A DNA stretch of 64,000 nt from Squalus acanthias (taxonomy: Eukaryota), in NCBI GenBank assembly GCA_030390025.1, contig CM059438.1, positions 33,852,001 to 33,916,000 of the forward strand. The letters run 5' to 3'. The number at the start of each line of letters is the position of its first letter. Position 1 is the stretch's first letter. The notes beneath the pieces were generated by a model that was not told the origin of the DNA, made no database searches, and worked only from the letters and a program-made list of their open reading frames with translations. A program made the position numbers and the translations under genes. Positions 1-43,189 of this stretch are shown piece after piece.

Positions 1-1631
1 AACGACCTCACTCGGGTCGTCAGGGTGAGTGGCTTTTTTGCAATACCTCTCCATCCCTCCATCTCAACCTCACTCTATGGCCAGAGGGTGTTAAAACCCC
101 AATGCACAACACTCATCCAACACCTATGGCCCTTTCATGAAGCACACACACACATACCATACTTTGCATACAGTAAGGGCTATTCACCTATGGGAGGCAC
201 ATCAGGCAAGACCATGGCTGTATACAGTAAGGGCTATTCACCTATGGGAGGCACATCAGGCAAGACCATGACTGTATACAGTAAGGGCTATTCACCTATG
301 GGAGGCACATCAGGCAAGACCATGGCTGTATATTTACTCAGACGCCGTCCTTTTTCTTGCAGGCCAAGCTGGCGCATAATAGGAGACAGCAGCAACGGAC
401 AGGTGGAGGGCGGCCTCAGCTGCAACCCCTCAGCGATCTTGAGGAGCGCGTCCACAGGATTGTGGCAAGCCGGGTGATCGGTCCCGTCGCCACTGGAGAC
501 GCCGACCCCGTTCTGGACAGCAATGGTAAGGTCATCACCTTTTTGTCCTCTGTCCTTCCACTTGTCCCTCACAACACCAGCCTTTGACACTTTCAATCCA
601 ACTTACTAACTCGCTGCACTTATTCCTCCCTTACTGCCACCCTGTCCTCACGATAAAGCCACTCTTGTACCTCCCTGCTTTCAGATGGTGATTCACCAGC
701 TGAGGAGACGGGCCCTCAAGCTGCCAGTGGGAGTGAAGCTGCAGCCGAGGAGGAAGAGGAAGCCGGAGCATCAGTGCCACCCTCTCCCGAGGAAGCCCAT
801 GCCGACACTGGGAACACGCCTTCCCTGGAGGGGAGCAGGGGGGAAGGGTCTGATGAGGGTGAAGCTCCAGGACCCAGCGGGCTGCAGCAACGCGATGGGG
901 GTAGGGAAGCTCGGGGGCCTTCTCCCCGGAGGGAGAGTATGCCAGCGAGTCCTGCTGCACTGGACGCAGAGGAGGAGCGGCTGATCGCGGAAATGAACAC
1001 CCAGGCGGTGGGCATGCACACTGAGCTCATGGCTGCAGTGGGTAGGGTGCCCGAATGCATTGAAGCACTGGCAAGGAGTGTGGAGCACTTCGCTGCAGCG
1101 CAGGCGGATGCGACACTGAAGCTCAGTGCTGCAATTCAATCTCAGACTGCTCTCATGCAGACTCAGATTGAGGCCACGCGAGCACTGTCTGCTGCCATCC
1201 TCGCTGGTTCGTTCACATTTCCCCGGGGCTCTCACCGCGCCGCAGCTGGCCAGCAATCTGTGCTCCAGCAGATTGCTCCGGATGCTGAGGTGCTGCCCCG
1301 TGGGAGTGCCAGTGTGCCGGTCGAGCAGGGAGTTGCTGTCCTCGCTCAAGATGACAGCATTCCTGCTGCCACCACTGTCACTTCTCCACTGCAGTTGCCA
1401 CCGCCTGTAGGACAGACTGCTGCTGCCCATGCAGAGTTGGTGCAGTCTGCAGCCGGGCCCTCCAGGCCCAGAACTGGTCGAGGCCGTCCCTCAAGGGCAT
1501 CTGCATTGTCAGGGCCTGACAGTCAGCAGCCTTCCACCAGCCTTGCTGCAGCCACTGAGGTCCCATTGCGGAGGAGCAGTAGGGTAAGAAGGGGGGAAGG
1601 GCGCAAGGGAAGGAGTTCACCCTCGATGTAG
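1..1631 (+). CDS. Harbinger Myb/SANT-like DNA-binding protein, spliced: exon 1 end 1-24, exon 2 363-525, exon 3 685-1631
   Basis: NDLTRVVR|gtgagt; ttgcag|AKLAHNRR...DSN|gtaag; tttcag|DGDSP... in frame with ORF 774-1631; phases 0 and 1 are consistent. Confidence 0.85.
167..330 (+). repeat. Three tandem 54-bp repeats in intron 1 of the Myb gene (copy 1)
   Basis: cagtaagggctattcacctatgggaggcacatcaggcaagaccatg recurs at 171, 225 and 279. Confidence 0.95.
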
Positions 1632-1942
1632 GAGGTGTGACAAAATGCTGGTCATTTTTTTATTAAATGCCGAGGTTCGTGGTCAAACTTTTGTTGAGTG
1701 TTTTGCACATGATCTCCAGGTTGTGAGAACCAGTTATGGTAATGACTGTTTTTTTGTGTTTATTTGTATGAGTTTGTCATGAAGAAATGACACACACAGA
1801 GTTTGTAAAATAAATAAGTTTTGGTACTCAAAATATACATGTTTGGTGTTTGGAATCATTGGTGCCTTGGCCGGCTTAGGGGTTGCGTGTTGGGTTCATT
1901 CATGCTGTTCTCAATGGCAGAAGCCATTTCCACAGCAGGGGC

Positions 1943-3089
1943 CTAGAAGCGGCTTGCTATCAGCCGCTGACGGACGGCCCTTGCAGTTTCACCATTGTGG
2001 GCCGCCCTCACGCCTTGGTGCTGCTGCTGATCATCCTCCTCCTCCTCTTCCTCCTCCTCCTCTGGTGGTGCTCCAAGGCCTGGTGGCATTGGCTGGGTCC
2101 TGAGGATTGCCATGCAGCATGCAGCACACAACTACGATGTTGGAAACTCGCTCAGGCGAGTACTGCAGGGCTCCTCCAGAATGGTCGAGACAGCGGAACC
2201 GTTGCTTGAGCACGCCGATTGTGTGCTCCACGATGTTCCTGGTAGCTTGATGGCTCTCGTTGTACCGCAGCGCAGCAGGGGTGTTGGGCGTACGGAGCGG
2301 TGTCATCAGCCAGCTGCTCAGTGGATACCCCTTGTCCCCGAGAAGCCAACCAACTGGCTGATGCGGTGCCTCGAAAAGTTCTGCCATAGTAGTCTGGCGC
2401 AGGATGAAAGCATCGTGGCAGCTGCCAGGATACTGGGCATTGACAGCGAGTATCAGCTGTCTGTGGTCACAGACCAACTGAACATTCAAGGAATGGAACC
2501 CCTTTCTGTTCCGGAAATCCTCGGCATTCTCATGCGGAGCACGCAAAGCCACATGTGTGCAGTCAATGGCGCCCTGCACCATGGGGAAGCCCGCTATCCT
2601 CGCAAAGCCCAGAGCGCGTTCTTGCTGCTTGTCTGGGGTCATGGGGAAAGAGATGAACTCTCGTCTCCTTTTAAAGAGGGCATTTGTGACCTTCCTGATG
2701 CAGCAATGCACCGCGAACTGGAAGATATTGGCGATGTCCCCAACAGCAGATTGAAATGAGCCAGTAGCATAAAAGTTCAGAGCCACTGTGACCTTCACTG
2801 CCACCGACAGAGACGTCCTGGACCTCAGTTGAGGCTGCAGATCTGGCTGCAGCAGGTGGCAGAGCTCAGTGACCACCTCCTTGCTGAAGCGCAGCCTTCG
2901 CAGACACTGCTCCTCAGACATATGAATGTAGGAGAGCTGTTCACGATATACCCTGGGAGGGTAAGCTCTCCTGTACAGACGCCTGTTGGCCCTCCTCCGT
3001 CTGGCCATCATTGCCACTCTCTCTCTGCGTCTCTGTCTCCTCCGATTCAGCTGGCGCAGGACGACGCCCCCCATCAGTGCAGCCCCCAT
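1943..3089 (-). pseudogene. HARBI1-like (DDE_Tnp_4) Harbinger transposase with a 5-bp deletion frameshift near the C-terminus
   Basis: GAIDCTH / LLGDKGY / RNIVEHTIGVLKQRF motifs; compared with copy 2, tgcatgttgcacaacatggca is tgcatgctgcatggca (about 2111-2120); the original C-terminus survives in ORF 1943-2131. Confidence 0.9.
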
Positions 3090-3722
3090 ATCTCTTAGCA
3101 AGCAAAGTTATGAAGGCCAGAAACCAAAGTACCAGCGAAGTTAGGATGAGTAGCCAAAACTACCTCACACAGTGTTGACTCAATGCAGAAGTCTCTCTTT
3201 CTCTCTCTCCGAATCTCTCTCTCTCTCTCTCAGAACGAGTGGTGCAAAAATGTCCACCACAGAGAAAGACAGGAAGAGGCCCCCTTTAAATAGCGCCCCC
3301 CCAGCCCCACAGCGATTGATAGCGTTCCAGTCTTCCGGTCGTTGGATGCGCCAGGCGGTAAGGATGGGGGCGCCACTGAAATTCTGCTCCGGGGCGCCAC
3401 AAGGGCGTTGCACTCTTGTATGACATCACAATCTGCGCGCGCAGGAGACCGCGGCGATAAAGTTTAGCACCGCCGCAAAATGTCTAGTTAAGTTCCCGAG
3501 CGGCGCAAACATCGCCGCACCCGGGCGTTAGCTGCTTTGCGCCCCATTAGCGCCCTCTTAAGGCGCTAACGGGAGGTGCAACCAACTGAATTTTTCCCCC
3601 TAAGGCTCCTGCTTTGGAAATCCCACCCCGGCTGTCTGCGCTCCAGCATGGGATGCAAATCGTGCTGGGAGCTCACTAAAAGTAAGTAAATGAGGAGTCA
3701 ACAGAAGACTTTCCGTGAGCTT

Positions 3723-3945
3723 GCACTGCCGGTGTACGCTCGCACTGCCGGTGTACGCTCGCACTGCCGGTGTACGCTCGCACTGCCGGTGTACGCTCAC
3801 ACTGTTGGTGTACGCTCGCACTGCCGGTGTACGCTCGCACTGCCGGTGTACGCTCGCACTGCCGGTGTACGCTCGCACTGCCGGTGTACGCTCGCACTGC
3901 CGGTGTACGCTCGCACTGTCGGTGTACGCGCGCACTGCCGGTGTG
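3723..3945. repeat. 19-bp minisatellite (gcactgccggtgtacgctc), about 12 copies
   Basis: Exact 19-bp period with few substitutions and no spacers. Confidence 0.95.
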
Positions 3946-5314
3946 CCCATACTAGTTTCAGCCCCCGATTTCATTATTCAGTCCATATGGTTGAATTTAT
4001 TCTGTCATCAGGTTAGAAGGGAATAGGAATAGTTCCATTGCTCAGGATCACAGTCTGTGAAATCAAAGTGATTTCAGCCTTAAATAAATGAGAAATAAAA
4101 TCACAATCCACATATTGGTTGGTACGAAAGATGCATCTTTGTTAAATTAAAGCCTTAGCCCACTTGACAGAAGGCATGTGGACCTCCTGATAACACTATT
4201 AGCACTGCCAGTTACATGGTGGACTCTATTTCTAGCTTTGTAGTCTGTGATTGATATTGTAAACAGCAAGAATGTGATTGGAAGGAATGAAAATCACTCT
4301 CCTATAAGGTCAGAACTGCTGGGCCTGCACTACTGAAAAGGGAACTGGTTGCAAAATAAAACAAATAGAAATACAGGAAATATTTTCAAAAATCACTCAT
4401 CTGAAAACAAAGACAGCTCGAGGGTAAGAAAAAATAAAGGTAAAAAGAGCCCAAATGAAGCAGACTAGAGCAGCAAAGGAGTTCTCAGTTAGAATTGAGA
4501 ATATCAATACCAACAAGAATTGAGTTTATTTGCCTTTATTTTTACCCCAATTTTATTCCCTCCTCTCCTGAAGCTACTACTGTAGGTTTTTAGGTATATT
4601 TGGGCTTCGTGGGGGGCCAGGTTTTGTACCTGGTCAATTTGCACCTGATGTCGGGAGCTCCCCTTGAATTGGGGGCGGGGGTAGGGGTGGGCACTTAAAT
4701 GGTTGCTGACAAAGAATGATGGGAACATTCAAAGAAATTATTGCACATGGTAACAAAAATTGTGTTACTCTTCAAAAAGACTAGGGTCTGGAAATTCCTG
4801 GGGTTGGAGAGGAAAGCCCAATTTTTGGCTGGGGTGGGGGTGGGGGTGGTGCGAAGCCATGAATATGGGGTGGAACTTGGTTATGCCAGGATTCTGGCCA
4901 TTCCACTGGCCCTTTAAATTCTGGTGGGGAGGGACCGTTCCCCCCTCCCATAGTCAAATGGGGGTGTTTGGGGGAAGCTTCCATGCTACCCCAGGGATTC
5001 CACCCTTTATGCCCTCCATAATCCTGCGTGGAACCTATGCCCCAAGCCTTTAGTAGGGAAAGGTAAACAATTCCAGAGGAATCGATTACCTTCCCCTAGA
5101 AACCTGTTCTCTCCTTTGGGGGCAAGAGATGTGATGAAAAGGATTTTCTCCGGGGCTTCACCCAGCCTCCTCTCTGCCATCAGATTGGCACGGTGCCACT
5201 CTGACATTCCAGCTAATGGTTGGGACGGGCACAACTGAACTGCCCTTGCTGGCACGACGCACCCATCCTGGCCAAGCAATCACAAATTTGGATGTCAAGC
5301 AGCTTTGCTTTAAC

Positions 5315-8002: not shown

Positions 8003-9928
8003 CTATACTACACTGAACCATTTACTAGTTTCATTGGTTTACACAAAACTTTTAAAACGTGCCTACTAGTGCCTATGGGACTAAAAAACAAGCTTAATTT
8101 GAAGAGCCGCCTCAAACGGTTTAAAATGGACGCAATCGGCGGATACTCGTCTTGCTTTTTATGTTGATCTGGGGACAAGGCCAGTTTTGTGGGCGGGGCC
8201 AGCTTCCAGCACGATGTTTTTTAAACCAGCATTAAAGATCGTGGAAACTCGATTTACACTCAATGAAATTTGCGCTTAAAATTCCTCGATCTTTTACGCT
8301 GCTTAACCAAGTTCAGGCAAATTGCGGAAACTCTAGGCCCATATGTGTACACTAGGTCTACATCAGTCCTTAAGTTAACAGTTGAAAACCGATATACATG
8401 TTGCTTTCATTTTTAAATTATCCACAATTTGCATGGGGCAGAATGCCACGAGAGCCAGGTTACTCCCCAAATTCCAGACTACAAAATTAACATCATTTAA
8501 TTAGTCTTAATCACAACCTTAAATGAGGCACCACTTTTATGATGGGTGCATTCTACATCCTGGTGCCCAATCGGAGTTTTTGGGCCCAATTAATATGCTA
8601 CAAACTTGTCATTTAATTAATCACAACCTTTAATCAGGTACCACTTTTATTTTAACTTGAGGGAGAAACCTGGATTAAATTGCTGTTGATCTGTGCTTTG
8701 CTAATGTTCAGGATGTTCATAGTTTCAAGATAATTTGCAAACCAGCATGTTAATCGCTTCCATTTTAACTTCCTACAATTTTTGTATATGCATCAAATCA
8801 GAGACGGCCATGTCCTCCATACTGCATCAGCACAGTTTGAACATAAACTTCCAGTAATATAATTATTTATAATATAATTCACACTAATTAAAAAGTTTTT
8901 TGCAAGAGCAGATGGACCTGTTAGATAATACACTAATGAAAGAGCTCCATCTGCTACAGCGGACACCTTTACACAAGGAAGTGAATATGTAAGCAATGGT
9001 GCATTGACAATTATCTTACATAATGTGAAAAGGTCATTTTTTCCTGTCCGTACGAAGAACACTTTTTTGTGGCAATGAGAGAATTTGTAATACATCACTT
9101 GTACTTCCATATGAATTTTCGATAACAAGCCTCGTGAGAAGAAAAACAAAACTAAAAATAGTAACCGAGTTAACACTGAAGAAAACAGAAAGCAGCAAAA
9201 CGCTGGCAAGAAAATGATACATGTGACATAATAAAATCAAAATAAATAGAAACATGATAGAGGTACAGCAGGGAGCTAAATAATGAGCAAAAATGGATCA
9301 GGCATACAGAGCAAAAAGATGGACTGGAACAATTAGCAAATGTGCACATAGATAGGTACACCTTCCATTGGTGAAGATTTACCTATATTGCAAATAAAAT
9401 CTTATTAAAACATATTGGGGTAAAAATTCACTTGGTTGTGCCTCCCGTTAGCGCCTTAAGAGGGCGCTAATGGGGCGTTAAGCCGCTAACGCCCGGGCGC
9501 AGCGCTGTTTGCGCCGCTCGAGAACTTAACTTGAGATTGTGCGGCGGCGCTAAAACTTACCGCTGCGACCACCTGCGCGCGCAGATTGTGACGTCATTCC
9601 ATGGTGCAACGCCCTTGGGGCGCCCCGGAGCGGAAATTGAGTGGCGCCCCCTGCCTTACCGCCTGGTGCTTCCAACGACCGGAAGACTGGAACGTTATCA
9701 ATCGGTGTGGGGCTGGGGGGGGCGCTATTTAAAGGGGGCCTCTTCCTGTCTTTTTCTGTGGTCGACATTTATGCACCACTCGTTCTGAGAGAGAGAGAGA
9801 GATTCGGAGAGAGAGAGAGAGAGACTTCTACATTGACTCAACGCTTTGTGAGGTAGTTTTGCCTAGTTCATCCTAACTTTGTTGCTACTTTAGTTGCTGT
9901 ACCTCATTACTTTTCTGGCAAAGAGAAT

Positions 9929-11089
9929 ATGGGGGCTGCAATGATTGGGGGCGTCGTCCTGCTCCAGCTGAATCGGAGGATACTGAGACGCAGACAGAGA
10001 GTGGCAATGATGGCCAGACGGAGGAGGGCCATCAGGCGCATGTACAGGAGAGCTTACCCTCCCAGGGTATATCGTGAACAGCTCTCCTACATCCATATGT
10101 CCGAGGAGCTGTGTTTGCGAAGGCTGCGATTCAGCAAGGAGGTGGTCACTGAGCTCTGCCACCTGCTGCAGCCAGATCTGCAGCCTCAGCTGAGGTCCAG
10201 GACGTCTCTGTCGGTGGCAGTGAAGGTCACAGTGGCTTTGAACTTCTATGCCACTGGCTCATTCCAAGCTGCTGTTGGGGACCTCGCCAATATCTCCCAG
10301 TTTGCGGTGCATCGCTGCATCCGGCAGGTCACCAATGCCCTCTTCAGAAGGAGACGAGACTTCATCTTTTTCCCTATGACCCCAGACAAGCAGCGTGACC
10401 GTGCTCTGGGCTTTGCGAGGGTAGCGGGCTTCCCCATGGTGCAGGGCACCATTGACTGCACGCATGTGGCTTTGCGTGCTCCGCGAGAGAATGCAGAGGA
10501 ATTCAGGAACAGAAAGGGGTTCCATTCCTTGAATGTGCAGTTGGTCTGTGACCACAGACAGGTGATACTCGCTGTCAATGCCCACTATCCGGGCAGCTGC
10601 CACGATGCTTTCATCCTGCGCCAGACTACTGTGGCAGAAGTTTTCGAGGCACCGCATCAGCCAGTTGGTTGGCTTCTGGGGGACAAGGGGTACGCATTGA
10701 GCACCTGGCTGATGACACCGCTCCGTACGCCAAACACCCCTGCTGAGCTGCGGTACAATGAAAGCCATCAAGCAACCAGGAACATTATTGAGCGCACAAT
10801 CGGCGTGCTGAAACAACGGTTCCGCTGTCTGGACCATTCCGGAGGAGCCCTGCAGTACTCGCCTGAGCAAGTTTCGAACTTCGTAGTCGTGTGCTGCATG
10901 TTGCACAACATGGCAATCCTCAGGACCCAGCCAATGCCACCAGGCCTTGTAGCACCACCAGAGGAGGAGGAGGAAGAGGAGGAACAGGACGAGGACGATG
11001 ATCATCAGCAGCACCAAGGCAGGAGGGCGGCCCACAATGGTCAAACTGCAAGGGCCGTCCGTCAACGACTAATAGCAAGCCGCTTCTAG
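9929..11089 (+). CDS. Intact HARBI1-like Harbinger DDE transposase, 386 aa, single exon
   Basis: Uninterrupted ORF; GTIDCTH, GDKGY and RNIIERTIGVLKQRF catalytic motifs; CCMLHN; Arg-rich N-terminus and acidic C-terminal tract. Confidence 0.95.
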   Translation: MGAAMIGGVVLLQLNRRILRRRQRVAMMARRRRAIRRMYRRAYPPRVYREQLSYIHMSEELCLRRLRFSKEVVTELCHLLQPDLQPQLRSRTSLSVAVKVTVALNFYATGSFQAAVGDLANISQFAVHRCIRQVTNALFRRRRDFIFFPMTPDKQRDRALGFARVAGFPMVQGTIDCTHVALRAPRENAEEFRNRKGFHSLNVQLVCDHRQVILAVNAHYPGSCHDAFILRQTTVAEVFEAPHQPVGWLLGDKGYALSTWLMTPLRTPNTPAELRYNESHQATRNIIERTIGVLKQRFRCLDHSGGALQYSPEQVSNFVVVCCMLHNMAILRTQPMPPGLVAPPEEEEEEEEQDEDDDHQQHQGRRAAHNGQTARAVRQRLIASRF

Positions 11090-11383
11090 GGCCCCTGCCA
11101 TTGCTACAAACACTAATCAACCCAGCACGCAACCCCTAAGCCGGCCAAGGCACCAATAATTCCAACCACCAGCCATGTATATTTTGAATACAGAAACTTA
11201 TTTATTTTACAAACTCTGTGTGTGTCAATTCCTCATGACAAACTCATAGAAATAAACACAAAAAAACAGTCAATAACATAACTGGTTCTCACAACCTGGA
11301 GATAATGTCCAAAACACTAAACAAAAGTTGGACCATGAACCTCGGCCTTTAATAAAAAAATGACCAGCATTTTGGCACACCTC

Positions 11384-13260
11384 CTACTTTTTGCCCTTCG
11401 AGGGTGATCTCCTTCCCTTGCGCACTTCCCCCCTTCTAACCCTACTGCTCCTCCGTAATGGGACCTCAGTGGCTGCAGCAAGGCTGGTGGAAGGCTGCTG
11501 CTCGTCAGACCCTGACACTGCAGATGCCCCTGAAGGACGGCCTCGACCACTTCTGGGCCTGGAGGGCCCGGCTGCAGACTGCACCAACTCTGCATGGGCG
11601 GCAGCAGTCTGTCCTACAGGCGGTGGCAAGTGCAGTGGAGAAGTGACAGTGTTGGCAGCAGGAATGCTGTCATCGTGAGAGAGGACAGCAACTCCCTGCT
11701 CGCCCGACACACTGGCACTCCCACGGGGCAGCACTTCAGCATCCGGAGCAATTTGCCGGAGAACAGATTGCTGGCCTGCTGCGGCGCGGTGACAGCCCCG
11801 GGGACATGTGCACGAACCATCGAGGTTGGCAGCAGTCTGTGCTCGCGTGGCCTCCATCTGAGTCTGTATGAGAGCAGTCAGAGGTGGGATCACGGCAGCC
11901 ATTGACTGAATTGCAGCACTAAGCGTTAGTGTGGCATCCGCCTGTGCTACAGCGAAGTGCTCCACACTCCTTGCCAGTGACTCAATGCAATCGGGCACCC
12001 TTCCCACTGCACCCATGAGCTCAGTGTGCATGCCCACCGCCTGGGTGTTCATTTCTGCAATCAGCCGCTCCTCCTCTGCGTCCATTGCAGTAGGAGTGTC
12101 TGGCATACTCTCCCTCTGGGGAGAAGGCCCCCGTTCTTCCCTACCCCCCCCATGGCGTTGCTGCAGCCCGCTGGGTCCTGGAGCTTCACCATCATCAGCC
12201 CCTTCCCCCCTGCTCCCCTCCGGGGAAGGCGTGTTCCCAGTGTGGGCATGGGCTTCCTCGGGAGAGGGCGGCACTGATGCTCCGGCTTCCTCTTCCTCCT
12301 CAGCTGCAGCATCACTCCCAGTGGCAGCTTCAGGGCCCGTCTCCTCAGCTGGTGAATCACCATCTGAAAGCAGGGAGGTACAAGAGTGGCTTTAGCGTGA
12401 GGACAGGGTGGCAGTAAGGGAGGAATAAGTGCAGCGAGTTAGCAAGTTGGATTGAAAGTGTCAAAGGCTGGTATTGTGAGGGACAAGTGGAAGGACAGAG
12501 GACAAAAAGGTGATGACCTTACCATTGCTGTCCACAACGGGGTCGGCGTCTCCAGTGGCGACGGGACCGATCACCCGGCTTGCCACAATCCTGTGGACGC
12601 GCTCCTCCAGATCGCTGAGGGGTTGCAGCTGAAGCCGCCCTCCACCCGTCCGTTGCTGCTGTCTCCGATTATGAGCCAGCTTAGCCTGCAAGAAAAAGGA
12701 CAGCATCTGAGTAAATATACAGCCATGGTCTTGCCTGATGTGCCTCCCATAGGTGAATAGCCCTTACTGTATGCAGCCATGGTCTTGCCTGATGTGCCTC
12801 CCATAGGTGAATAGCCCTTACTGTATGCAGCCATGGTCTTGCCTGATGTGCCTCCCATAGGTGAATAGCCCTTACTGTATGCAAAGTGTGGAATGTGTGT
12901 GTGTGTTTGATGAAAGGGCCATAGGTGTTGGATGAGTGTTGTGCATTGGGGTTTTAAGACCCTCTGGCCATAGAGTGAGGTTGAGATGGAGGGATGGAGA
13001 GGTATTGAGAAAAAGCCACTCACCCTGACGACCCGAGTGAGGTCGTTGAACTTTTTGCGGCATTGAACATGGGTCCTGGGCACCATGCTCCTGGAGGAGA
13101 CGCTCTGAGCCACCTCCCTCCACACTCTTCTGAACTCGCGTGGCAAAGGCCTCCTGCCACTCTCCGGGAACAGCATGCATCGTCTGCGCTCCACTGCGTC
13201 AACCAGAGCATCCAAGGCCCGCTCGGTGAAGCGATGAGCGCGTTCTCTCACCCTCTCCAT
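11384..13260 (-). CDS. Harbinger Myb/SANT-like (MSANTD/NAIF1-type) protein, 3 exons: 13260-13024, 12685-12523, 12363-11384 (about 459 aa)
   Basis: RFT.RALDALV...W.EVA..V...RT..QCRKKFNDL trihelix motif; canonical GT-AG sites at the same positions as copy 1; 237+163+980 = 1380 nt in frame. Confidence 0.88.
12718..12881 (-). repeat. Three tandem 54-bp repeats in intron 1 of the Myb gene (copy 2)
   Basis: Reverse complement of the repeat at 167-330. Confidence 0.95.
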
Positions 13261-13647
13261 GCTTGGCAGCAAAATGGATTACAGGTCTCTCCAGGCTGAG
13301 ATTCAAGGCTGCAATGAGCAGGGTGTGGCTGGGGAGCAAGTGGCCCCCCCCGCTTTAAGAAGTGTCCGGCGCCATTGTGTCTGTGTTCCCTCGCTAACTG
13401 GCAGCAGCTGCGCTGCGCTCGTGCGCTGAGTTCGCGCCTCACTCCTTGGCCTTTGCGCCTTAAGAGAGGTGTGCAGCGCCTACTTTAGCGCTCCACTCAC
13501 CTCCCGGGGCGGTGAAAGTGAAGTTTCCTGTCAGTGCCGATAATTAGCGCCAGGCGCTAATATTTGCGTCCGGACGATATTTGCGCCCCAAATGGGGCGC
13601 GACCTAATTTCTACCCAATTGGATTGTATTTTACTTGTATTTGTAGT

Positions 13648-16769: not shown

Positions 16770-17612
16770 GGAGGTCTTCGCTTTACCATGGAGGTTGTTA
16801 CCTACAACTGCAGCCTCAAACCAGGGCACGGACAGCATTGCCTGTGGCGGTCAAAGTCACCGGCATACTTACCACGGGCTCCTTTCAGGCTGCAAAGGTG
16901 ACATCAGCAATATCTGGCAGTTTGCAGTACACCGATGTATCAGGGAGGCCACTAAGGCTCTCTACACCAAGAGAAACACTTGCATCCTTCTCTATTGACA
17001 GAGACAAGCAGGATGAGAGAGCAAGCGGTTTTGCCCACATGGCAGACTTCACCATGGTGTAAGGTGCCATTGACTGCACGCACATTGCCTTGCGAGCTCC
17101 GCATCAGCACGCTGGAATATTTATCAATCCCCAGGGATTCCATTCCCTCACAGTATAACTGGCTTACGACCATAGGCAGCATATCATGCAGGTCTGAACC
17201 CATCATCCTGGCAGCAGTCTCAACTCTTTCATTCTGTGCCTCCTTTATTGAAACCAGCCCTCCAATTTACAGGCTGTCTATTGGGCAACAAGGGATATCC
17301 CCTCCGTGCATGGCTCATGATTCCAGTTAGGAACACGCACACTGCTGCACAGCAGGCCTACAATGAGAGCGAGGGTGCCACAAGGAACATCATCAAGTAA
17401 ACAATCAGGGTACTCAAGCAATGCTTCCGCTGCCTGGGCCGTTCCGGAGGAGCTTTGCAATACACCATGAAGCAGGCTTCCAGATTTGTGGAAACGCCAG
17501 CGAGCGGCCTCCGAGCCACCCAATTTTCCATCACTTCTTGCCTGGTGGGATTTAACTGAGGCCAGGCCATTAAAATCCCACCAGAAACCCGCTGGCAGTC
17601 AAAATCCAGGCC
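16770..17612 (+). pseudogene. Degenerate Harbinger transposase relic
   Basis: LQPQTRARTALPVAVKVT, GAIDCTH, GNKGYP and VLKQCFRCL remnants with stops and frameshifts. Confidence 0.8.
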
Positions 17613-28805: not shown

Positions 28806-28938
28806 CTTCTAAACCCCCCCGTTAAAGTCACACTGGCATCAGGTGTGCACTCATGGACAAGATCCTTTATAATTTGACCCACAGCATTTGCCTCAGCTTT
28901 CATTACAGCACTATTGATGTCTTCATAGTACAAAAAAC
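28806..28938 (-). CDS. DNTT: TdT internal exon (exon 7 equivalent): G-FLYYEDINSAVMKAEANAVGQIIKDLVHECTPDASVTLTGGFRR
   Basis: cctag| acceptor, |gtgag donor; 133 bp, phase 1-2; the TGGFRR motif is typical of TdT/Pol mu and GFLYYED of TdT. Confidence 0.94.
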
Positions 28939-31104
28939 CTAGGGAGAGGAAAGCTTCATTAAGCACTTTGATGTGTGGCTGCATCCTGAAAGTTAAACCC
29001 TGGTTAAAGCAGAAAGTTGAAAACACCAACCCTTACATTTTACACCCTGAATAGCTATTTTTTTTCCATGACAACAGCAATAAACAGCCGCATACAAACT
29101 AAAATGCACAGAGAAGCAGGTCCATAGGTTATGTTTGAACGTATTTGTTTATAATTCGGACAGAGATCCCAAGAATTCCTAGTTGCTCCCGCAAATCTAG
29201 AAATTCATGTCCCGACACGTAGTAAAATCACTATATTCTATCAGCCTTGGAGGAGATTGGACCCATGCCAGTAATAGATTTAATGTGTGACCACCTAGTT
29301 CCAATAAACCACACAGATTAGCTTGTTTAATTTCTTCCAAACTTCAAAGCATAATTGTGCGCAGAGTGTGTAATCTGGCCTGCATGAGTAAGGCAGTGTT
29401 GTTTCGTGCACCACCCTTGTACTTCCCAGGTAACAACGACAAAGGCAAAAGACAAACAATACCCTACACATGTTAGCCAAGTTTGGCCTCAGGCTCTTAA
29501 GTTTGAGGGTGTTATTAGTCCGGTCTCTGTAACACATGTCTACTGGAATCATAGGCCCTGAAAATTCATGTGAGCCTGAGAATTACGCCATGATCACGCC
29601 AGTTGGGAACCTCCGTAGCAGATCCCAGCGGATATTCTGGGGTCAGGGGGAGGTTCCCTACTTTTAATTCCATTAATTTGTGCCCATGCCACTGGGGGCA
29701 CATCTAGGGTAATCGCTATATCAGGAAGGCAGAGGAGTGCAGGGTCATGAGTGCCGGGTTCCCCCTTTCCCCCCCCAGAAGGAACTTGTAGATGCTCCCT
29801 CTGCACAGCCCCCTTTAAAGATAAAAATGGGTTAAATTTGGGTTGGAGTTCAGGCCTTGATCCCTGCCTGGACCTCCAGGTGGTCCTCACATTCCGCCAG
29901 TCATCAGAGAGATACGCCACATCTAACCGCTCATACTTCTGCCGACTATACACTGGGTCTCTCTGAGGCTTTGAATTATGGTAACTTGGACACAAAGCCA
30001 GGATCTGCCCTATATTTCTCAGGCACAAAGCATTGAGCCACATTTCTGCAACTTCTGTTTTGCCCCCATCATTCTGGGGTTTCCCTCAGGTGCCTACACT
30101 TGCAGTATGTGTGAGCAATCAAAAGCCGTGAAAATTAAGCAGAAACATCTCTCACCTCATTTCTCTGGGTCATTACTTGCCAGAAAGCCAAGTATAGTGA
30201 CATCCACAATTAATAGGCCTTAATACTTCCCCCTGCCTCCCTCAGAATGGAGGATTGAGAGGGGCAGGCAGCAAGGCCATGGACGACAAGGAAAATTAAG
30301 TGCCACATTTCTTCAGGACCAGTCGGAAGACTACTAGGGCTGGAGGTCTTCTGATTGCTGTTTGTTGATGGCAATCAGAAGGCCCCAAAGCTGGCAGCCA
30401 TTACTGTTGCTTCAAGCCTCTAAACTGAAGCAGCAGTTGGTTTTCTACCCCCATTTCCAGATACAAGCCTTTGCCAAGGAGTAGGCCTGGTCCTGGGGTA
30501 CATAAGGACGTTAAAATGACCTGAACCTGGAAATACAGTGGGGTTCAGGCCAGGTCAGAGGTCAGGTCAGGTCAGGTGGACTGTGCTTCAGGTCTATTGG
30601 CTTGTGCCCAGGTGGATTGAGGAGAGGAAATCATTTATTTAAACATAACCATGCAGGAATACAGATTGGAGCAGTTCCACCAAACAGGGTTACATTGGAT
30701 CTTGTTTCAGTCCAGACCAATTACTCCAGTTCAGCTGTTTCATTTACCTCTGGATTCAACTAAATGGAGTATTGCCCACATGCTGATTCTTTAGTAATAG
30801 TCCCAGTCCATGGGCCCTATATGAGCACTCTGATTCCCAACCAGTTTGTTAGTCTCAGGTTGTCTCCACCAGTTATTGGATGGAACTTCTTTGTCCAAAG
30901 CAATCATCTAGTCATTGACCTGTTGAGCTTTATTACAATACGAGGATGGCCATTTCCATCCCTATCTCCTTTTCCCCTTTGAATAGCAGGAACTAAGCTA
31001 AAACTTATCACTTCCTCTAGTGGGCCATGACTCTGGTTAACATGTTCCACTCTGCATTGCTTGTTCCACGTCTCTCTGCTATAATCAAAGTCTACCCACA
31101 AAGT

Positions 31105-33006: not shown

Positions 33007-33570
33007 CTACAGCAAGATAAATTACATTAATTGGATCCTGTTACTCTGTCAAGGGTCGTGGCTGCACTACATATTCATCGTTAACTTTCTTACATTGTTT
33101 TCAACAAATGCATCAAAATATTACAGGGAGACAAAGTGCTGTGAATAAATATGCAAACTTTTTCTGACAGAATTTTACTAAAGTTGAAATAAATAGCTAT
33201 TATAATCTTGCTAACGCTGTCTTCTTTATCTCACACCAAACTAAATTCCAAAGTTTCTATAGATTTACATAGAAATGAATCAGCTTCAATAATCTCGTCC
33301 CTGAGTGATAAGAACTACTGGGGGGAAAATTCGGTCGCACCCCCTTTGGGGCGCTAACTTCATCGGGCGCTACTTTTAGCACCCCGAAAAGGTTAACACC
33401 CCCGCGCCGTAAATTGAGTGGTAGCGCCCCAAGCAGGAGGCGGGGCGCTACTGGAAGCGCTCCCCCTCCTTCCTGGGGCGCTACCATTCAATATTGCGAC
33501 GCTACGTGCAACAGCACCACGCGCGCGGCACGTAGCACCGCGATACTACAGGCCTCCCTCCCCTGATTAA

Positions 33571-33872
33571 TGTGAGAAGTCGCACAACACCAGGTTATAG
33601 TCCAACAGCTTTATTTGAAATCACAAGCTTTCGGAGCGCTGCTCCTTCGTCAGGTGAAGTGAAGAGATGCATATAGGCACAGCATATATAGTCAGAGAAC
33701 ATAGTCTCTGACTATATATGCTGTGCCTATATGCATCTCTTCACTTCACCTGATGAAGGAGCAGCGCTCCGAAAGCTTGTGATTTCAAATAAAGCTGTTG
33801 GACTATAATCTGGTGTTGTGCGACTTCTCACATTTGTCCACCCCAGTCCAACACCGGCATCTCCACATCATG
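33571..33872. mobile_element. Palindromic Penelope-derived insertion with a 12-bp TSD (tcccctgattaa at 33559-33570 and 33873-33884)
   Basis: 128-bp arms (33571-33698 and 33705-33832), 6-nt loop, 2 mismatches; hammerhead motif in each arm. Confidence 0.9.
33746..33782 (+). ncRNA. Minimal hammerhead ribozyme motif (mirror copy on the minus strand at 33621-33657)
   Basis: tcac-CTGATGA-aggagc agc gctcc-GAAA-GC-TT-gtga; palindromic AAGCTT helix III. Confidence 0.75.
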
Positions 33873-34436
33873 TCCCCTGATTAAAGGGGAGGTGCCTAGC
33901 GCAGCATGCACCGGGGCCCTGCTAGACCACTGGGGAGCGGGGTGCCGGGAAAACAGCCCAACACTCCTGATCAATCGCGGCTGGCACCCCACATGAGGGA
34001 ACAGAAAGGGGGCAAGTGCTGGCAGGGGGGCCAAAAAAAAATGGCCGCCCAGCACCTGCCCTTTAATTAGTGCCGCTGCGGCTGTAAAAACGCCCCCGAT
34101 CCTGTCGGACATATCGTCCGGCAGTAGTTCAGGGGGCACGACCGAAGTTTGCGGCCGGGGCGCTGCGCACGCCGATGACGTCATCGCTGGAGGCGCAGCT
34201 CCATGGGGCGCTACCGGCTACCACCGCCACTAACCTCCCGCTGAATTTCGCGGTAGGCGTTAGCGGCACCGTGCCGCGCCCAGGCGCTAGGCGCTTTGTG
34301 CCCTGTTAGCGCCCCCCTGGGGCACTAACGGGAGGCGCAAAGCAACCCAATTCTTCCCCCATTAAGTGCCAGAGTCAATCTAATTTGGATGCATGTCTCC
34401 CACTTTGTGCTGTAGTGGTCTTGATTACCACGTAAT

Positions 34437-36199: not shown

Positions 36200-37270
36200 T
36201 CAGGTGGGGCAGAGAAAGGTGGGGCAGGATCGCTCAGCTGCCAGGGGAAGGTATCCCTGCTCTTAATCTCCTCTTCCTCATCATCGTCATGGTCATGTGC
36301 ATAAGTGGCAATAACTCCCCAGCTCTTCCGCCTCCATCTCATCATCATCATCTTCCTCCTCCTATGACCCTCCACCATTGCTGTAGTGGATCTTCAGGAA
36401 AGACGGATAGGCTAAGAATAGGTGAGTGTTACCTCCCTGGGATTAAGCAGACAGATTAAGGAGGGGTGGAAAGTTGTGTCCGTGCGGTGCTTCACATGGA
36501 TTCCAAAGCAACAGTGCAGGTGCTCAGTCATGAACCTGGGCTCTGGCAAGATGCCACCAACCTCACTGTCTCCCACAGCAAAAAACAAGTGAGTGCCCAC
36601 TAGCTCCATGGTGTTCTCCTCAAAGGGAGTGAGGGGTTTGAAGATGGGGATGTCCCCTCTGATGGCCTGCCTTTGATGGGCATTGGGTGCTAACTTGTCC
36701 CACAAGAAGATAGAGTGAATGAGGGTAAAGCCAGCAGTTGAGGAGTGTGTGCTAAGCGGTATGGGAGAGGTGGAGTAAGAGATGTGGAGGTATGAGGCTG
36801 CTAAAGTGGAGGAAGGGTTTTTTTCGGTTGTGCATGCAAGTAATTGATGTTAGGAGATCTGTGTGTACTCAGGACAGGATACTGAGTTAGAGCTGCCCTT
36901 CTTCAGAATACAGTGTGAAGGGTTAGTGTGAAAGTGTTGCTTTAAGAGGTTGAAGAGTATGCTGGTGCCCAGGGTGAGTAAGGAAGAAAAGGAAAGTGTG
37001 CCCAGTGTGTTAACTTGTCAGCCCTGGTGAGGTCATTAAACTGGACTGCAGTCCTGGGGGTGAGGGAGTTGGCACTCAGTGCCAGTGTTACCTCCCTCCA
37101 GGCAGCATGAGTTACATTCCTGGTAGAATTGGTGGCACCCATACCCGGGACTCATTTTGTCCTGTCTTCAACGCCTTCCAGAAGGGCTTGAAGGTCTCAA
37201 TGAGTGAAGTTGTGCGTTCTTTTTCTTTGGCTTGGTGCCATTGCCCTGCTGCTCTCTGGGTACAGATGGT
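36200..37270 (-). pseudogene. Degenerate Harbinger-type Myb/SANT gene relic
   Basis: AAWREVTLALSANSLTPRTAVQFNDLTR in ORF 36942-37142; acidic tract near 36270-36360. Confidence 0.55.
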
Positions 37271-37518
37271 GCTTGAATGTTCATAGTTCACAATAAAAAT
37301 ATTGGTAAGACATGCAGTAAAATTATTAGAGAGTGAAGTGAAAGAGCCAATCACTGTTCCTTCCTTATCTGTTTGTCCCCTAGTCTCCTGCCGATGAGCA
37401 CAGGTTGAAACTCTTTTAAAAAGCCGTACAGAAATGTTCTGGTCATTCAGCTGCTTACAAAGGTTTTATCCCAATGCCTACGCCAATGAGTATGCAAATG
37501 AGTAAACCAAGGAGACTA

Positions 37519-40500
37519 TGGCCCTGATATAAATGTAAAGGCGGGTTCCGAGCGAAGCTCAGATGTAAAGTTGGCGGGTCGGATTCTCCAATTCCGATTT
37601 GATTGAATCATTAAATATTTCCTCCCGGTTTTGCCTCTCCAAGCTGCGCAGTGGGCATGATGCGCACCCGCCATCTGAAGTCCACTATTAAAAGGACCAG
37701 TGCAGAAATGGAATTTGGAGGAGCCAGGAGGTATTGAGGATGGATTCACAAAGAGCAAGGGCAGCGTCAGATTCAATGAAGCTTCCCCTGAGTTACTGCT
37801 GGCTGCAGTCAGAAGCAGGAGGGACGTACTTTTCCCCAGCTATAGGAGGAAGAAACCTACTGCTGTCACCAAGAAGGCGTGGTTGGAGGTGGCTGAGGAG
37901 GTGAGAAGCAGGAGCATTGTTTCCCGGTCTTGGATGCAGTGCAAGAAGCAGTTTAATGTCCTAACCAGGTCAAGAAAAGTGAGCACATTTGCTGATTCAC
38001 CTAGATCCTGTGGTGTAAACCCCCCCCCCATCACTCTGTCTTGTCAAGCGTGCTCCATCACATCACTCCTCACACCCACTTAACATTCAGCATCACCCAG
38101 CCTTCATTTTCTATGCACTTCCTCACCTCCCTATGTATCCATCCACCTCTGCCACTCACCCCAATCCTTATGCATTGTGATGCATCTGTCTGATAGTCAC
38201 CCTCACCAACTATACTGCATCCATCAAGTGAATATGCAATCTTCATTCACTCATAGTTCTGTTTCTTTGCCCCTTATAGAAGAGAGCGCAAAACACAAGG
38301 GAGAGGGAGAGGACCGCAGGTGGCCCACCACAAATTACGCTGCTTACAGATGTAGAGGAGGATGCCATGCAGATAAGTGGCACATCTCCATCCTGGTCAA
38401 TAGGAGATGGAAAGACAGGGAGCCCATATTTAGCTGGTGACAGAATCAGAAATATTTCTGATGCACATGCTGACTTTATTTCATTAATGACTGAACTATG
38501 AGAAGACTGAGTAGAGTGATTATCAAGATTGTTACTTTGCCATGACTAATTCATATTTTTTGTCTTTTGTCTTCCAGGGCCTTCATGCATAGAGCAAGAG
38601 TCGCAGGAGATGCACGAGGACACTTCCTCAGAGGACCTCATTCCTTCTGAGGGTGCGCCAGCACAGGATGTATAACCGTGCGCCAGCGCAGATACTCACA
38701 CTTCGGTGGGTTCAGTTACACAGTTATTTAGGGTTTAACCTGGTGATTCACAATTCACAAGTGAGCACAAGCAAACACTGGTGGCAGGACAGCTGTGGAG
38801 AGTCCATGTCGGCGGGTGCAGTCCTCTCCAAGCTCTGCTCAGCTGGACACAGATGCTGAACCATCATTGAGAAGGAGAATGCTTGAGGTTAATCAGCAAC
38901 TTTGAAAGCTACTGACAGATATGCCACGCAAACACTCTACAATAATGGAGAGGATAGAGGAGTCCAACTCAAACAGTAGGGGATTGGTGGTGCAGGTAAT
39001 TGCGAGATTGTCTGCCATGGAGAGAATGGCCGCTTCCGTGGAGCTTCAAGCCTGGCTCTCGAGTGCATGCAGGCCATGACCACGGCCATGCAGACTTTGG
39101 CCGCCAACATGTCTGCCGTCTTAAACAGCATGACAGATACCTTATCCGTGGCCTTATAATGTGACACTGATCTTCATCAAGCTGACCTGCAGCAGAGTGG
39201 TAGGAGTGATGTGGCACTGGCCCATGAGAGGGATGATGACAAAAGGGGACATGGAAGTGGGAACTCCAATCAAAGTGCTCCCACGTCTCACCTGTTGCCC
39301 CCATCCCACCCCCACCTAGTCAGTACTCTACGTACTTCCTCTTCTCCCGATGGCTGAGCCTGCCCCTGCACAGGTGCAGGTAGAGCAGACTTTAGCAGGG
39401 CCCTCAGGGGCTCCGAAACCCAGAGGTCAGCAGCCAAGAGCATCTCAACAGTCAGGGCAGGGATCTGAGCAGCTTGCCTCTACCTCTACTGAAGCCACAC
39501 GGGATGCACCATGTAGAAGTGGTAGGAAGCATAAGTTAAAGGAATTGTAATTCATCAAGAGTATGCACATGGGTGTTTGACACAATGTTATGTTGTTAAG
39601 TTTCCTTTTTTTAAATAAGGCCACTTAAAATGTATTGATTAGCACCACTTCAACGTCTTGCCCATTATTGCAGCCTGAGTGCCAACTAGCCCTTTCACTT
39701 GTTTCATTATAAATGTCAATACATGACGGGACCCACTGGGCAGATGTGCAATGGGTGAATGAATGGCTGAAGGACTGTTTTGTGCAAAGCAAGGGGCAGA
39801 GATTTGGTAGTGGTGAGAGCTTTCATTTGTTATTTATTCCAGTCGGAATAATTAATTGAACCTTCGAGCTATTAGGGCATCCCTGGCAACAATGTAAGCA
39901 GTTGGTCTGGCGATGGGTGCCCCATTTTCACACTCTTCCTCCTCCTCTTCTTCAATGTTCTCCTCATCAGGTGATGTCTGATCATAGAATCATTACGGCA
40001 CAGTAAGAGGCCATTCGGCCCGTTGAGCCCGTGCTGGCTCTCTGCAAGAGCAATTCAGCTAGTCCCAATCACCCGCCCTTTCTCCATAGCCCTGCACATT
40101 TTTTCCTTCAGGTACGTATCCAATTCCCTTTTGAAAGCCATGATTGAATCTGCCTCCACCACCCTTTCAGGCAGTGCATTCCAGATCATAACTACTCGCT
40201 GCGTAAAAAAGTTTTCCCTCATGTCGCCTTTGGCTCTTCTGCCAATCACCTTGAATCTGTGTCCTCTGGTTCTCGATCCTTCTGCCAATGGGAACAGTTT
40301 CTCTCTATGTACTCTGTCTAGACCCCTCATGATTTTGAACACCTCTATCAAATCTCCTCTCAACCTTCTCTGCTCTAAGGAGAATAACCCCAGCTTCTCC
40401 AGTCTATCCACGTAACTAAAGTCCCTCAGCCCTGGAACCATTCTTGTAAATCTATTCTGCACCTTCTCTAAAGCCTTCACATCCTTCCTAAAGTGCGGTG

Positions 40501-43189
40501 CCCAGAATTGGACACAATATTCCAGTTGTGGCCGAACCAGTGTTTTATAAAGGTTCATCATAACTTCCTTATTTTTGTACTCTATGCCTCTATTTATGAA
40601 GCACAGGATTCCATATGCTTTTTTAACCGCTTTCTCAACCTGTCCTGCCACCTTCAATGATTTGTGCACATATACCCTCAGGTCTCTCTGTTCATGCACC
40701 CCCTTTAGAATTGTACCCTTTAGTTTATATTGCCTCTCCTCGTTCTTCCTACCAAAATGTATCACTTTGCACTTTTCTGTGTTAAACTTCATCTGCCACG
40801 TGTCCGCCCATTTCACCAGCCTGTCTATGTCCTCTTGAAGTCTATACCTACCCTCCTCACTGTTCACTATACTTCCAAGTTTTGTGTTATCCGCAAATTT
40901 TGAAATTGTGCCCTGTACACCTAAACCTGAATCATTAATATACATCAAGAAAAGCAGTGGTCCTAGTATCGACCGCTGGGGAACACCACTGTATATCTTC
41001 CTCTAGTCCGAAAAACAACTGTTCACCACTACTCTGTTTCCTGTCACTTAGCCATTTCTTATCCATGCTGTCACTGTCCCTTTTATTCCATGGGCTTCAA
41101 CTTTGCTGGCAAACCTATTATGTGGCATTTTATCAAATGCCTTTTGAAAGTCCATATACACCATATCAACCGCATTGCCTCATCAACCCTCTCTGTTACC
41201 TCATCAAAAAATTCAATCAAGTTAGTTAAACATGATATGCCTTTAACAAATCCATGCTGGCTTCCCTTAATTACTCTACACTTGTCCAAGTGACTGTTAA
41301 TTTTGTCCCGGATTATCGTTTCTAAAAGCTTCCCGACTACAGAGGTTAAGCTGACTGGCCTGTAATTGCTGGGTTTATTCTTACACCCTTTTTTGAACAA
41401 GGGTGTAACATTTGTAATTCTCCAGTCCTCTGGCACCACCCCCGTATCCAAGGAGAATTGGAAGATTATGGCCAGTATCTCCGCAATTTCCACCTTTAAT
41501 TCCCTCAACATCCTAGGATGCATCCCATCTGGTTCTGGTGACTTATCTACTTTAAGTACAACCAGCCTTTCTAGTACCTGCTCTTTATCAATTTTTATCC
41601 CATCCAATATCTCAACTACCTCATCTTTCACTATGACGTTGGCAGCATCTTCTTCCTTGGTAAAGACAGATGCAAAGTATTCATTTAGTACCTCAGCCAT
41701 GCCCTCTGCCTCCATGCGTAGGTCTCCTTTTTGGTCCCTAATTGGCCCCACCCCTCCTCTTACTACCCGTTTACTATTTATATACCTATAGAAGATGAGT
41801 GCCTTGGTCGTCCTCCACATGTAATCCTCTCTGCTGCTCAATGTTCTGCAGGACGCAGCATACCACTAAGATTCGGGACACCTTCACTGGCGAGCACTGA
41901 TCACCTCCAGACCTACATAGGGACCTGAAGTGCATCTTCAACATGCCGACAGCTTGTTCGATGACACACCTGGTGGTCATGTGGCTCTCGTTGCAGTGCT
42001 CCTGCGCCCCATTTTGGGGTTCCTCATGGGTGTCATGAGCCAAGTTTGAAGGGGGTCTCCCTTGTCTGCTACGAGCCAGCCCTTAAGTCTGGTTCCTGAA
42101 ATGAAAAGGTCTGAAATGTTGGACTGCTCCAGTATGAAAGCTTCATGAAAGTTCCCAGGGAATCTGGTGCACACCTCTTCTTGTGGTTGCATAGCAGCTG
42201 CATATTGATGGAATAAAATCCCTTGCAGTTGATAAAAACTCCTGATTGATGTGGTGGTCCTTGGATTGCCACATGTGTGCAATCGGTGGCACCCTGTACC
42301 TGTGGGAAGCCAGCCAGAGAGGTGAATGCGATTGCCCGCTCATGTTGACTATTGTCATTGCTGGGAAGTTGACATAAGTCGACGCCCTGGCAAACAACCC
42401 ATCTGTGACCTGCCGTATACATTTATGGATAGCCAACTGGGTGACCCTTGAGATGCCTCCGGTGGCGCACTGGAAGGAGCCAGAGGCAAAGAAATTGAAG
42501 GCGGTGGTGGCTTTGACAGCGGCGGGCAATGCGTGTCCAGCAGGGAGCCACTCTTCTTGAAGGAGGCTGCTGATGTCTGCGACCACCTACCGTGTCAATC
42601 TGAGCCTGTGGAAGCACTGCACGACGTCAGGACTGTGGTTGGGGACTGTCTTCCTCGTCCGATGTAGTGTCCAAAACATCCATAGCACCTCCCATCCTGC
42701 TGGTGTTCATTTGAAAGCCTCCAAAATTCTCAAAAACCTCCTTGCTGACAAGAACGCTCTGCGAAATATTTGCCAGAGTGAACTGACAAAGCAGCTGAAA
42801 GCACTGAGACTTTATTGAGATCGGGCAATCTGAACTTTATAAACCCCCATGAAGTACCCCTTCAATCTCGCCTCCTTTTCACTGCCGAGTTTCCTGACCT
42901 CCGGGAAAGCCATGCCGGAGGCATTAAATTCAAATGCCTGTTTAATCCAATTGAAAATCCCTTTATTACCATGTGCCAATGATGTTATCGGCGGTGGTAA
43001 TTACTGACCCGCCTGTCCTAATGATTGTGCTGACTCGGCGAGCAAGTTACGCGCACACAGCCGAATGCGCCTCCGTTAATTTACAGAAGTGGGTGTGTTG
43101 GAGCTGGGTTGCAGTCGCACTTCAATTTTCTTCGATGGTTACTTCCCACCTGACCCCAATCCAACCGTTCTTGGGGGTTAAAATTCCCC
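37519..43189. mobile_element. Older, degenerate full-length Harbinger (Myb gene +, 37700-39550; transposase -, about 39850-42700) split by a CR1 insertion
   Basis: RFNEA..LLL.AV..RRDVLF...AWLEVAEEV...QCKKQFN; GATDCTH, ADKGDPL, VIEQAVGMLKMHFR and CCVLQN remnants; terminus ggggttaaaattcccc. Confidence 0.8.
39982..41790 (-). mobile_element. CR1 LINE, 5'-truncated, inserted into the old Harbinger transposase
   Basis: NYRPVSLTS, QHGF, FADN and RPQLEYCVQFW in ORFs 41083-41841 and 40055-40948. Confidence 0.92.

Follow-up and report, generated by a model that had tools for sequence, protein, structure and literature searches.

A full-length two-gene Harbinger transposon in a Squalus acanthias TdT intron, probably a stranded member of a large shark family

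The closest described systems to the element reported here are Harbinger3_DR (also named NuwaI-2_DRer), a reconstructed element from zebrafish (PMC2836001, PMC3016246, PMC4482050), Harbinger-Snek of sea kraits, the rice elements Ping and Pong with mPing, and LatiHarb1 of the coelacanth. The element itself, a 4,201-bp PIF/Harbinger transposon with ATT on either side, occupies positions 9417-13617 of a 64,000-nucleotide stretch of the Squalus acanthias genome (assembly GCA_030390025.1, CM059438.1, 33,852,001-33,916,000 of the forward strand; label G000:C14:33852001-33916000), hereafter the window, to which all element coordinates refer. We consider it probable that this copy is a full-length two-gene Harbinger with open frames and a substituted terminal base, stranded as a probably fixed insertion from a burst in a slowly mutating genome. 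It is reasonable to search its family for a vertebrate Harbinger that is active in its native form, with the window copy not the first choice.

Judged on length, terminal inverted repeat (TIR) length and domains, the nearest described element appears to be Harbinger3_DR. Both have 12-bp TIRs and combine a DDE_Tnp_4 with a Myb_DNA-bind_5 domain, the zebrafish element being 4,204 bp long (PMC4482050), the outer target bases AAACAC and GT(G/C)TTT match the consensus published for Harbinger3_DR (PMC3016246), and both have a non-autonomous partner. The shark element differs in its relaxed, A/T-rich duplication, where that of Harbinger3_DR is CWG, in its longer proteins (386 and 459 aa, compared with 343 and 221 aa), and in that its copies are mostly naturally open, with an estimated ~900 of them full-length.

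A perfect 3-bp duplication was found at 83 of 105 copies, against 7.8% with shuffled flanks, and the modal target of these 83 insertions, strands pooled, is the palindrome AAACAC-WWW-GT(G/C)TTT of ~15 bp, the length published for the extended target of vertebrate elements of the PIF/Harbinger superfamily in its broad sense (PHIS; PMC2836001, PMC3016246). The duplicated triplet was WWW at 57 of the 83 insertions, NWN at 78, TWA at 18, TNA at 20 and CWG at one, and the flanking C and G were each present at 66%. The element has the features of PHIS, namely a DDE_Tnp_4 transposase with its acidic residues, a separate Myb/SANT gene, short TIRs starting with G, a 3-bp duplication and the extended 15-bp vertebrate-type target preference. 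It shares with NuwaI (Han et al., 2015) TIRs that begin GGG and fall within 12-61 bp, together with a DDE and a Myb/SANT open reading frame (ORF), and departs from it in the near-absence of CWG, so our assignment stops at the broad PIF/Harbinger superfamily. Of the C-TNA-G target of NuwaII, the flanking bases are common here and the TNA centre is in the minority, and the TWA duplication of narrow-sense PIF/Harbinger (Han et al., 2015) is likewise in the minority; one family with an NNN duplication in Table S1 of PMC4482050 is a precedent for a relaxed centre.

The remaining 22 of these 105 young copies (L002-L125) lacked a perfect 3-bp duplication although both flanks resembled target half-sites: nine had one substitution, five a 2-bp overlap, two a 1-bp overlap and six were unrelated. 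Divergence would be expected to produce only 2-3%, far less than this; the cause could be imprecise integration, errors of assembly polishing, or else gap repair or ectopic recombination. Independent insertions were also seen at the same site in other repeats (L085/L095/L060; L056/L079; L113/L115; L004/L068/L123), one of these shared sites being a short tandem repeat.

Like Harbinger-Snek as published, the shark family shows a massive recent expansion in a vertebrate, natural intact two-gene copies, expression and non-autonomous derivatives (PMC8437027); 269 fully intact copies were reported in one L. colubrina assembly and activity was suggested. Harbinger-Snek was described as acquired horizontally from a marine source, whereas long residence in cartilaginous fish is favoured here. 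With rice Ping/Pong and mPing, for which two proteins are required and terminal bases matter, the family has in common a 3-bp duplication, an extended target preference and a miniature inverted-repeat transposable element (MITE) that outnumbers the autonomous element; the rice system differs as a plant system of demonstrated natural activity, with a TTA/TAA duplication and a 9-bp preference (PMC2836001, PMC9921582). With LatiHarb1 the parallel is one of description: Harbingers are numerous in a vertebrate genome that evolves slowly, there that of a sarcopterygian (PMC3787270, PMC9179366). The rarity of natural intact vertebrate Harbingers implied by an earlier sequence-only annotation of the window (the original prediction) was overstated in view of PMC8437027 and of the 88, 11 and 22 'potentially active' families listed across eukaryotes in the three PHIS groups (PMC4482050), and a natural PIF/Harbinger insertion mutant has been described in a nematode (bioRxiv 10.64898/2026.05.26.728016).

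For cartilaginous fish, a 2022 survey gave no Harbingers in the elephant shark and named other cartilaginous fish as still to be examined (PMC9179366), whilst an account of the grey reef shark goes no further than to name Tourist and Harbinger as the most frequent of its few DNA transposons (PMC12498223). Our search of the literature on Harbingers in sharks and other elasmobranchs, which lay outside Repbase, Dfam and subscription journals, found no characterised two-gene shark family. Given so sparse an elasmobranch record, the description of a large elasmobranch family should be usable: it is a source of insertion markers and of numerous natural copies that could be put through an activity assay. 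To specialists it will not be surprising, since intact vertebrate Harbingers are already on record and a slow mutation rate leads one to expect intact copies.

The window copy is one of hundreds of copies that are 98-99.8% identical. Its first and last bases recur in 29 other genomic copies with unrelated flanks, so its boundaries are not a matter of chance. A genome-wide BLAST search for near-identical copies, proposed in the original prediction, returned many at unrelated sites, with 35 of 35 scored candidates full-length at 98-100% identity; each of four copy searches scored 35-36 of 2,646-4,879 candidates. The first 22 bases of the element occur exactly 5,110 times in the genome (reversed control, 0) and a 24-base transposase segment 7,047 times, a count that includes sister subfamilies with other ends. 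Among 40 left ends, taken from the first 42 listed in genome order and all on one contig, seven belonged to full-length elements and 33 to a non-coding 893-bp MITE, from which we extrapolate ~890 full-length copies (95% interval 375-1,675) and ~4,000 MITE copies. The terminal 130 bases of the MITE equal the element majority at 126/130 and 129/130 positions, its copies lie on average 0.94% from their own majority, and the closest pair is one base apart. On the likeness of these ends, the 893-bp MITE, found outside the window, appears to be a real non-autonomous partner of the element.

In an alignment of 87 full-length copies the transposase was open in 76 and the Myb frame in 77; both ORFs together with canonical splice sites were intact in 67, and 51 combined intact ORFs and acidic motifs with both majority 12-bp TIRs. 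Most of the 87 were top BLAST matches, which favours intact copies; among unselected full-length copies five of seven were intact. Copies L036, L041 and L082 were dropped as repeats of L001, L029 and L044, L069 was left out as a tandem duplicate of L068, L070 was left out of the junction counts as its right end was unmatched by the pattern, and matches without a locus identifier stand outside the alignment. The claim of an intact, potentially active element is thus supported for the family, with its many copies, its 67 open ones and spliced Myb RNA from the wider family, and is not supported for the window copy.

The copies are mosaics of subfamilies: four-gamete incompatibility rose from 0.24 (<100 bp) to 0.46 (>2 kb; permutation p 0.003) across 73 aligned copies and 76 informative sites, a pattern that suggests recombination or template switching. 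At C1:19.91-19.96 Mb the transposase segment occurs five times on one strand at a spacing of ~10-12 kb; the copies L068 and L069 there have common flanks and are two substitutions apart, and the region is likely a tandem segmental array rather than a product of transposition.

The coding capacity of the window copy is largely as the original prediction had described it. The transposase ORF, said to be an uninterrupted 386-aa DDE protein, has no stop, matches Pfam DDE_Tnp_4 (E 2.5e-39) and has all four acidic residues (D176, D226, D252 and E288). Its AlphaFold model is confident (mean pLDDT 88.9) and silent on activity, and a fold search matched DDE integrases/transposases weakly at best (lowest E 0.004), with nothing at E <= 0.001, which is uninformative. 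The closest protein matches are from sharks and rays (55-66% identity), with the bony-fish matches in the list scoring lower; annotated genomes of sharks and rays hold many such relatives, mislabelled as HARBI1. The convergent Myb/SANT gene, proposed as three exons encoding about 459 aa, has Myb_DNA-bind_5 in its first exon (E 1.3e-9), and the exons in Table 1 join into 459 aa without an internal stop. Open frame as such was rejected as proof of this splice model, as dozens of other GT/AG combinations are also open; the gene is supported instead by RNA and by a homologue. A contig joint at exactly 12363/12523 (CT..AC on the plus strand) was present in three of four probable RNA runs, from two studies, and intron 2 is retained in 87/87 genomic copies, so that this joint is not a known DNA deletion. 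The four runs were inferred to be RNA, none of the listed holders being recorded as such. Across the first junction, residues 5-113 align without a gap with a sawshark homologue at 47% identity; none of the joints listed in the four probable RNA runs is that of intron 1, which is no evidence against its splicing. Of the two predicted junctions, then, the probable RNA runs supported that of intron 2, for the wider family, and did not list that of intron 1 (0/4).

Of 40 RNA variants listed, 35 are those of the 91% identical sister subfamily, and 17 have no counterpart in any of the 87 close copies; other subfamilies therefore account for much of the RNA. Some RNA contigs differ from the window by 0-1 over 150-300 bases, and with the sister-type variants this makes both subfamilies appear transcribed. 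The window alleles at 10368 and 13514 were not seen in any of the four runs, read as contigs that drop rare variants. A search for longer homologues with Myb exon 1 returned one match among 158 candidates, and the sawshark database protein P0007 combines Myb and DDE domains in a single annotated chain, which may be a fused gene model. In Myb exon 3, ~12 linked substitutions at 11826-11925, mostly amino-acid changing, divide two subfamilies.

The window copy differs from nearly all of the 87 copies at nine positions, seven of them unique and two shared with one other copy. The claimed ATT duplication and TIRs were confirmed, with TIRs of 12 bp. One internal mismatch between the TIRs is family-wide; the second, which the original prediction had not flagged, is the last base of the right TIR, 13617, where the window copy has A and 85 of the 87 copies C. 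A change at 13433 breaks one of the subterminal TAGCGC repeats, which we infer to be Myb sites. Two rare changes alter the transposase, S147F (10368) and A174T (10448), the latter two residues before D176 at a residue that is V or A in 32 of 37 homologues and T in one. For mPing, transposition falls when TIR positions 1-3 are altered at one end and is almost lost when both ends are altered (PMC9921582), which suggests that mobility of the window copy is reduced and not necessarily zero. Substitutions at invariant positions relative to the family consensus were among what the original prediction had named as counting against it; the window copy, with its changes at positions nearly constant among the 87, is a poor candidate for a competent element.

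In both host DNA runs, X1 and X2, single contigs cover 1 kb of unique flank and continue without branching into the element, as far as base 9438. No empty allele was found at the left junction in either run; such an allele would branch the graph, and the two samples therefore likely carry the insertion on both chromosomes. Divergence of the host flanks from the window is 0.43% in X1 and 0.35% in X2, close to that between sister copies (19 of 4,200), which makes the insertion about as old as the host alleles.

No identical pair exists among the 87 copies, and a four-seed search for identical young copies found none among the 35-36 candidates scored per search. Nearest-neighbour distances among them are 7-50 substitutions (median 19; window copy, 19). 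Ten substitutions separate the window copy from the majority sequence of its subfamily of five members, whilst the youngest group (L102, L103 and L105) lies 4-5 from its own. At the epaulette shark mutation rate of 7e-10 per generation (PMC10587355), 10 substitutions correspond to ~3.4 million generations (1.7-17 million over the interval of that paper) and four to ~1.4 million, rough upper-side figures given a rate from another species and counts inflated by assembly errors and CpG decay. Copy-private changes look neutral-like, the ratio of non-synonymous to synonymous changes (pN/pS) being 0.84 in each gene and not different from 1 (p 0.33 and 0.27; 73 copies). The family burst likely looks recent mainly because shark DNA mutates slowly.

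In the mechanism we propose, the transposase gene and the spliced Myb gene would be transcribed convergently, splicing of intron 2 having been seen for the wider family. If Harbinger3_DR is a guide (PMC2836001), it would fall to the Myb protein to bind the element ends and to take the transposase into the nucleus, both proteins being needed and excision usually precise. The transposase would excise the element and insert it at the centre of the ~15-bp palindromic target with duplication of 3 bp, a preference taken from the 83 insertions with presumed chemistry. The same proteins likely mobilised the MITE copies with their near-identical ends. After insertion the window copy would have drifted neutrally to its nine private or nearly private substitutions, so its excision is probably impaired; it might still supply protein in trans.

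Several points weigh against a stranded, old and impaired window copy. Residue S147 is variable, and at position 174 the 37 homologues have V, A, I, C or T, so that the transposase may be functional despite both changes, and one single-end terminal change, as in mPing, reduces transposition and need not abolish it (PMC9921582). The host evidence comes from two DNA runs read as contigs, one possibly the assembly source, at the left junction and 15 of 956 joints. The change at 13617 and other private changes could in part be assembly errors, in which case every copy would be younger, and the rate behind the ages is that of another species. With so small a share of the candidates scored, a small, identical, young subfamily could be missed, and among the MITEs some pairs are no more than 1-2 of 893 bases apart. 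These same close MITE pairs favour a family that transposes in the germ line today from few source copies, with proteins that work without reconstruction and the window copy as an older daughter, and so do the 51 copies that look complete, the splicing of intron 2 in three of four probable RNA runs, the 4-5 substitutions of the youngest group and the still CpG-rich element ends. We regard present germ-line activity as possible but doubtful, as no two of the 87 copies are identical, the listed RNA variants are mostly of the broken sister type, with 17 absent from those copies, and shared changes carry no sign of purifying selection (pN/pS 0.67-0.84, not significant). Equally doubtful is the idea that natural unrepaired copies, other than the window copy, are still mobile in the germ line of the shark and would also be functional in cultured cells. 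If true, this would provide a Harbinger from a cartilaginous fish that is active in its native form, with a 15-bp target preference of relaxed centre, an unusually high share of imprecise junctions (~one in five) and a ready 893-bp MITE vector.

That the window copy is itself fully competent and mobile is improbable. Its open ORFs, canonical splice sites, four acidic residues, confident transposase model and perfect 3-bp duplication would allow it, and are outweighed by the changed terminal base, the lost subterminal motif, S147F and A174T, by alleles unseen in the probable RNA runs (though contigs drop rare variants), by the unbranched junction in both host runs and by the lack among the 87 copies of any daughter with its private changes. 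A recent horizontal transfer into the lineage, the family being common to unrelated organisms, has published parallels among Harbingers (PMC8437027, PMC9179366) and would explain element words in sequencing runs under nine organism labels. Both other-organism runs examined, X9 and X15, show the element (depth ~4-65) and a neighbouring high-copy repeat with none of the unique flank; this is as expected from trace host DNA, and on these two runs transfer from the nine labels was rejected. With the best protein relatives in sharks and rays, lower-scoring bony-fish matches, and the 91% identical sister subfamily and relics of 44-56% identity in the window pointing to long residence, such a transfer is very unlikely. 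A domesticated host gene pair of the HARBI1/MSANTD type would fit the database name 'putative nuclease HARBI1' given to homologues, and has next to no chance of being correct: TIRs, duplications, hundreds of dispersed copies with unrelated flanks and neutral-like private changes speak against it, and the multi-locus copies refute it. The reading we retain is that of a stranded, probably fixed copy.

Table 1. Features of the element, the host gene and neighbouring elements (positions in the window)
Feature	Position	Strand	Basis or remark
Left target-site duplication, ATT	9414..9416		sequence
Left TIR, 12 bp	9417..9428	+	equals family majority
Left subterminal region, CpG-rich, repeated TAGCGC-type motifs	9417..9800	+	sequence
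Transposase gene, DDE, 386 aa	9929..11089	+	ORF, Pfam
3' region common to both convergent genes	11090..11383		AATAAA on + strand at 11251 and 11351, on - strand at 11201-11206
Myb/SANT exon 3, without Pfam match	11384..12363	-	splice model, RNA joint
Intron 2, GT-AG, 159 bp	12364..12522	-	joint in RNA-type contigs; kept in 87/87 genomic copies
Myb/SANT exon 2	12523..12685	-	splice model, sawshark alignment
Intron 1, GT-AG, with 54-bp tandem repeat at 12716-12883	12686..13023	-	sequence
Myb/SANT exon 1 (Myb_DNA-bind_5)	13024..13260	-	Pfam
Right subterminal region, repeated TAGCGC motif	13261..13605	-	private change at 13433 breaks one motif copy
Right TIR	13606..13617	-	terminal base 13617 is A here, C in 85/87 copies
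Right target-site duplication, ATT	13618..13620		sequence
Sister-subfamily copy, 4,172 bp, inverted, TTA duplication	1..3600	-	91% identical; extends 572 bp past left edge
TdT exon on 5' side of host intron	28811..28948	-	protein match, motif
1,041-bp element, Harbinger-type ends, different family	33320..34360	-	ends 74-78% alike, without matching 3-bp duplication

The CpG observed/expected ratio of the left subterminal region is 1.04, against ~0.36 in the host flanks, and this region is likely the Myb-binding and promoter region. Intron 1 measures 230, 284 or 338 bp among the 87 copies with the copy number of its 54-bp repeat.

The placement of the insertion inside a TdT intron was borne out. 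Two host exons, the one at 28811-28948 and another downstream of it, match TdT better than Pol mu (1.5e-8 versus 1.9e-6; 2.2e-10 versus 0.0036), and Pol mu was accordingly rejected as the host gene. The next TdT exon, identified by motif, lies ~31.7 kb beyond the left window edge, which with the exon in Table 1 places the element in a ~60-kb intron. The Myb gene (minus strand, 11201-13260) carries splice acceptors and AATAAA in the TdT sense and could intercept TdT transcripts.

Both ORFs of the sister-subfamily copy at the left edge are broken. Candidate non-autonomous partners had been proposed in the window; the 1,041-bp element there was rejected as the direct partner on the low likeness of its ends, the direct partner being the 893-bp MITE found elsewhere. 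Older Harbinger relics lie at 16796-17490, 41840-42616 and 37005-37969, comprising two broken transposases (44-56% protein identity) and two Myb-like exons, and a further short match to the element ends is present near 43861-43919.

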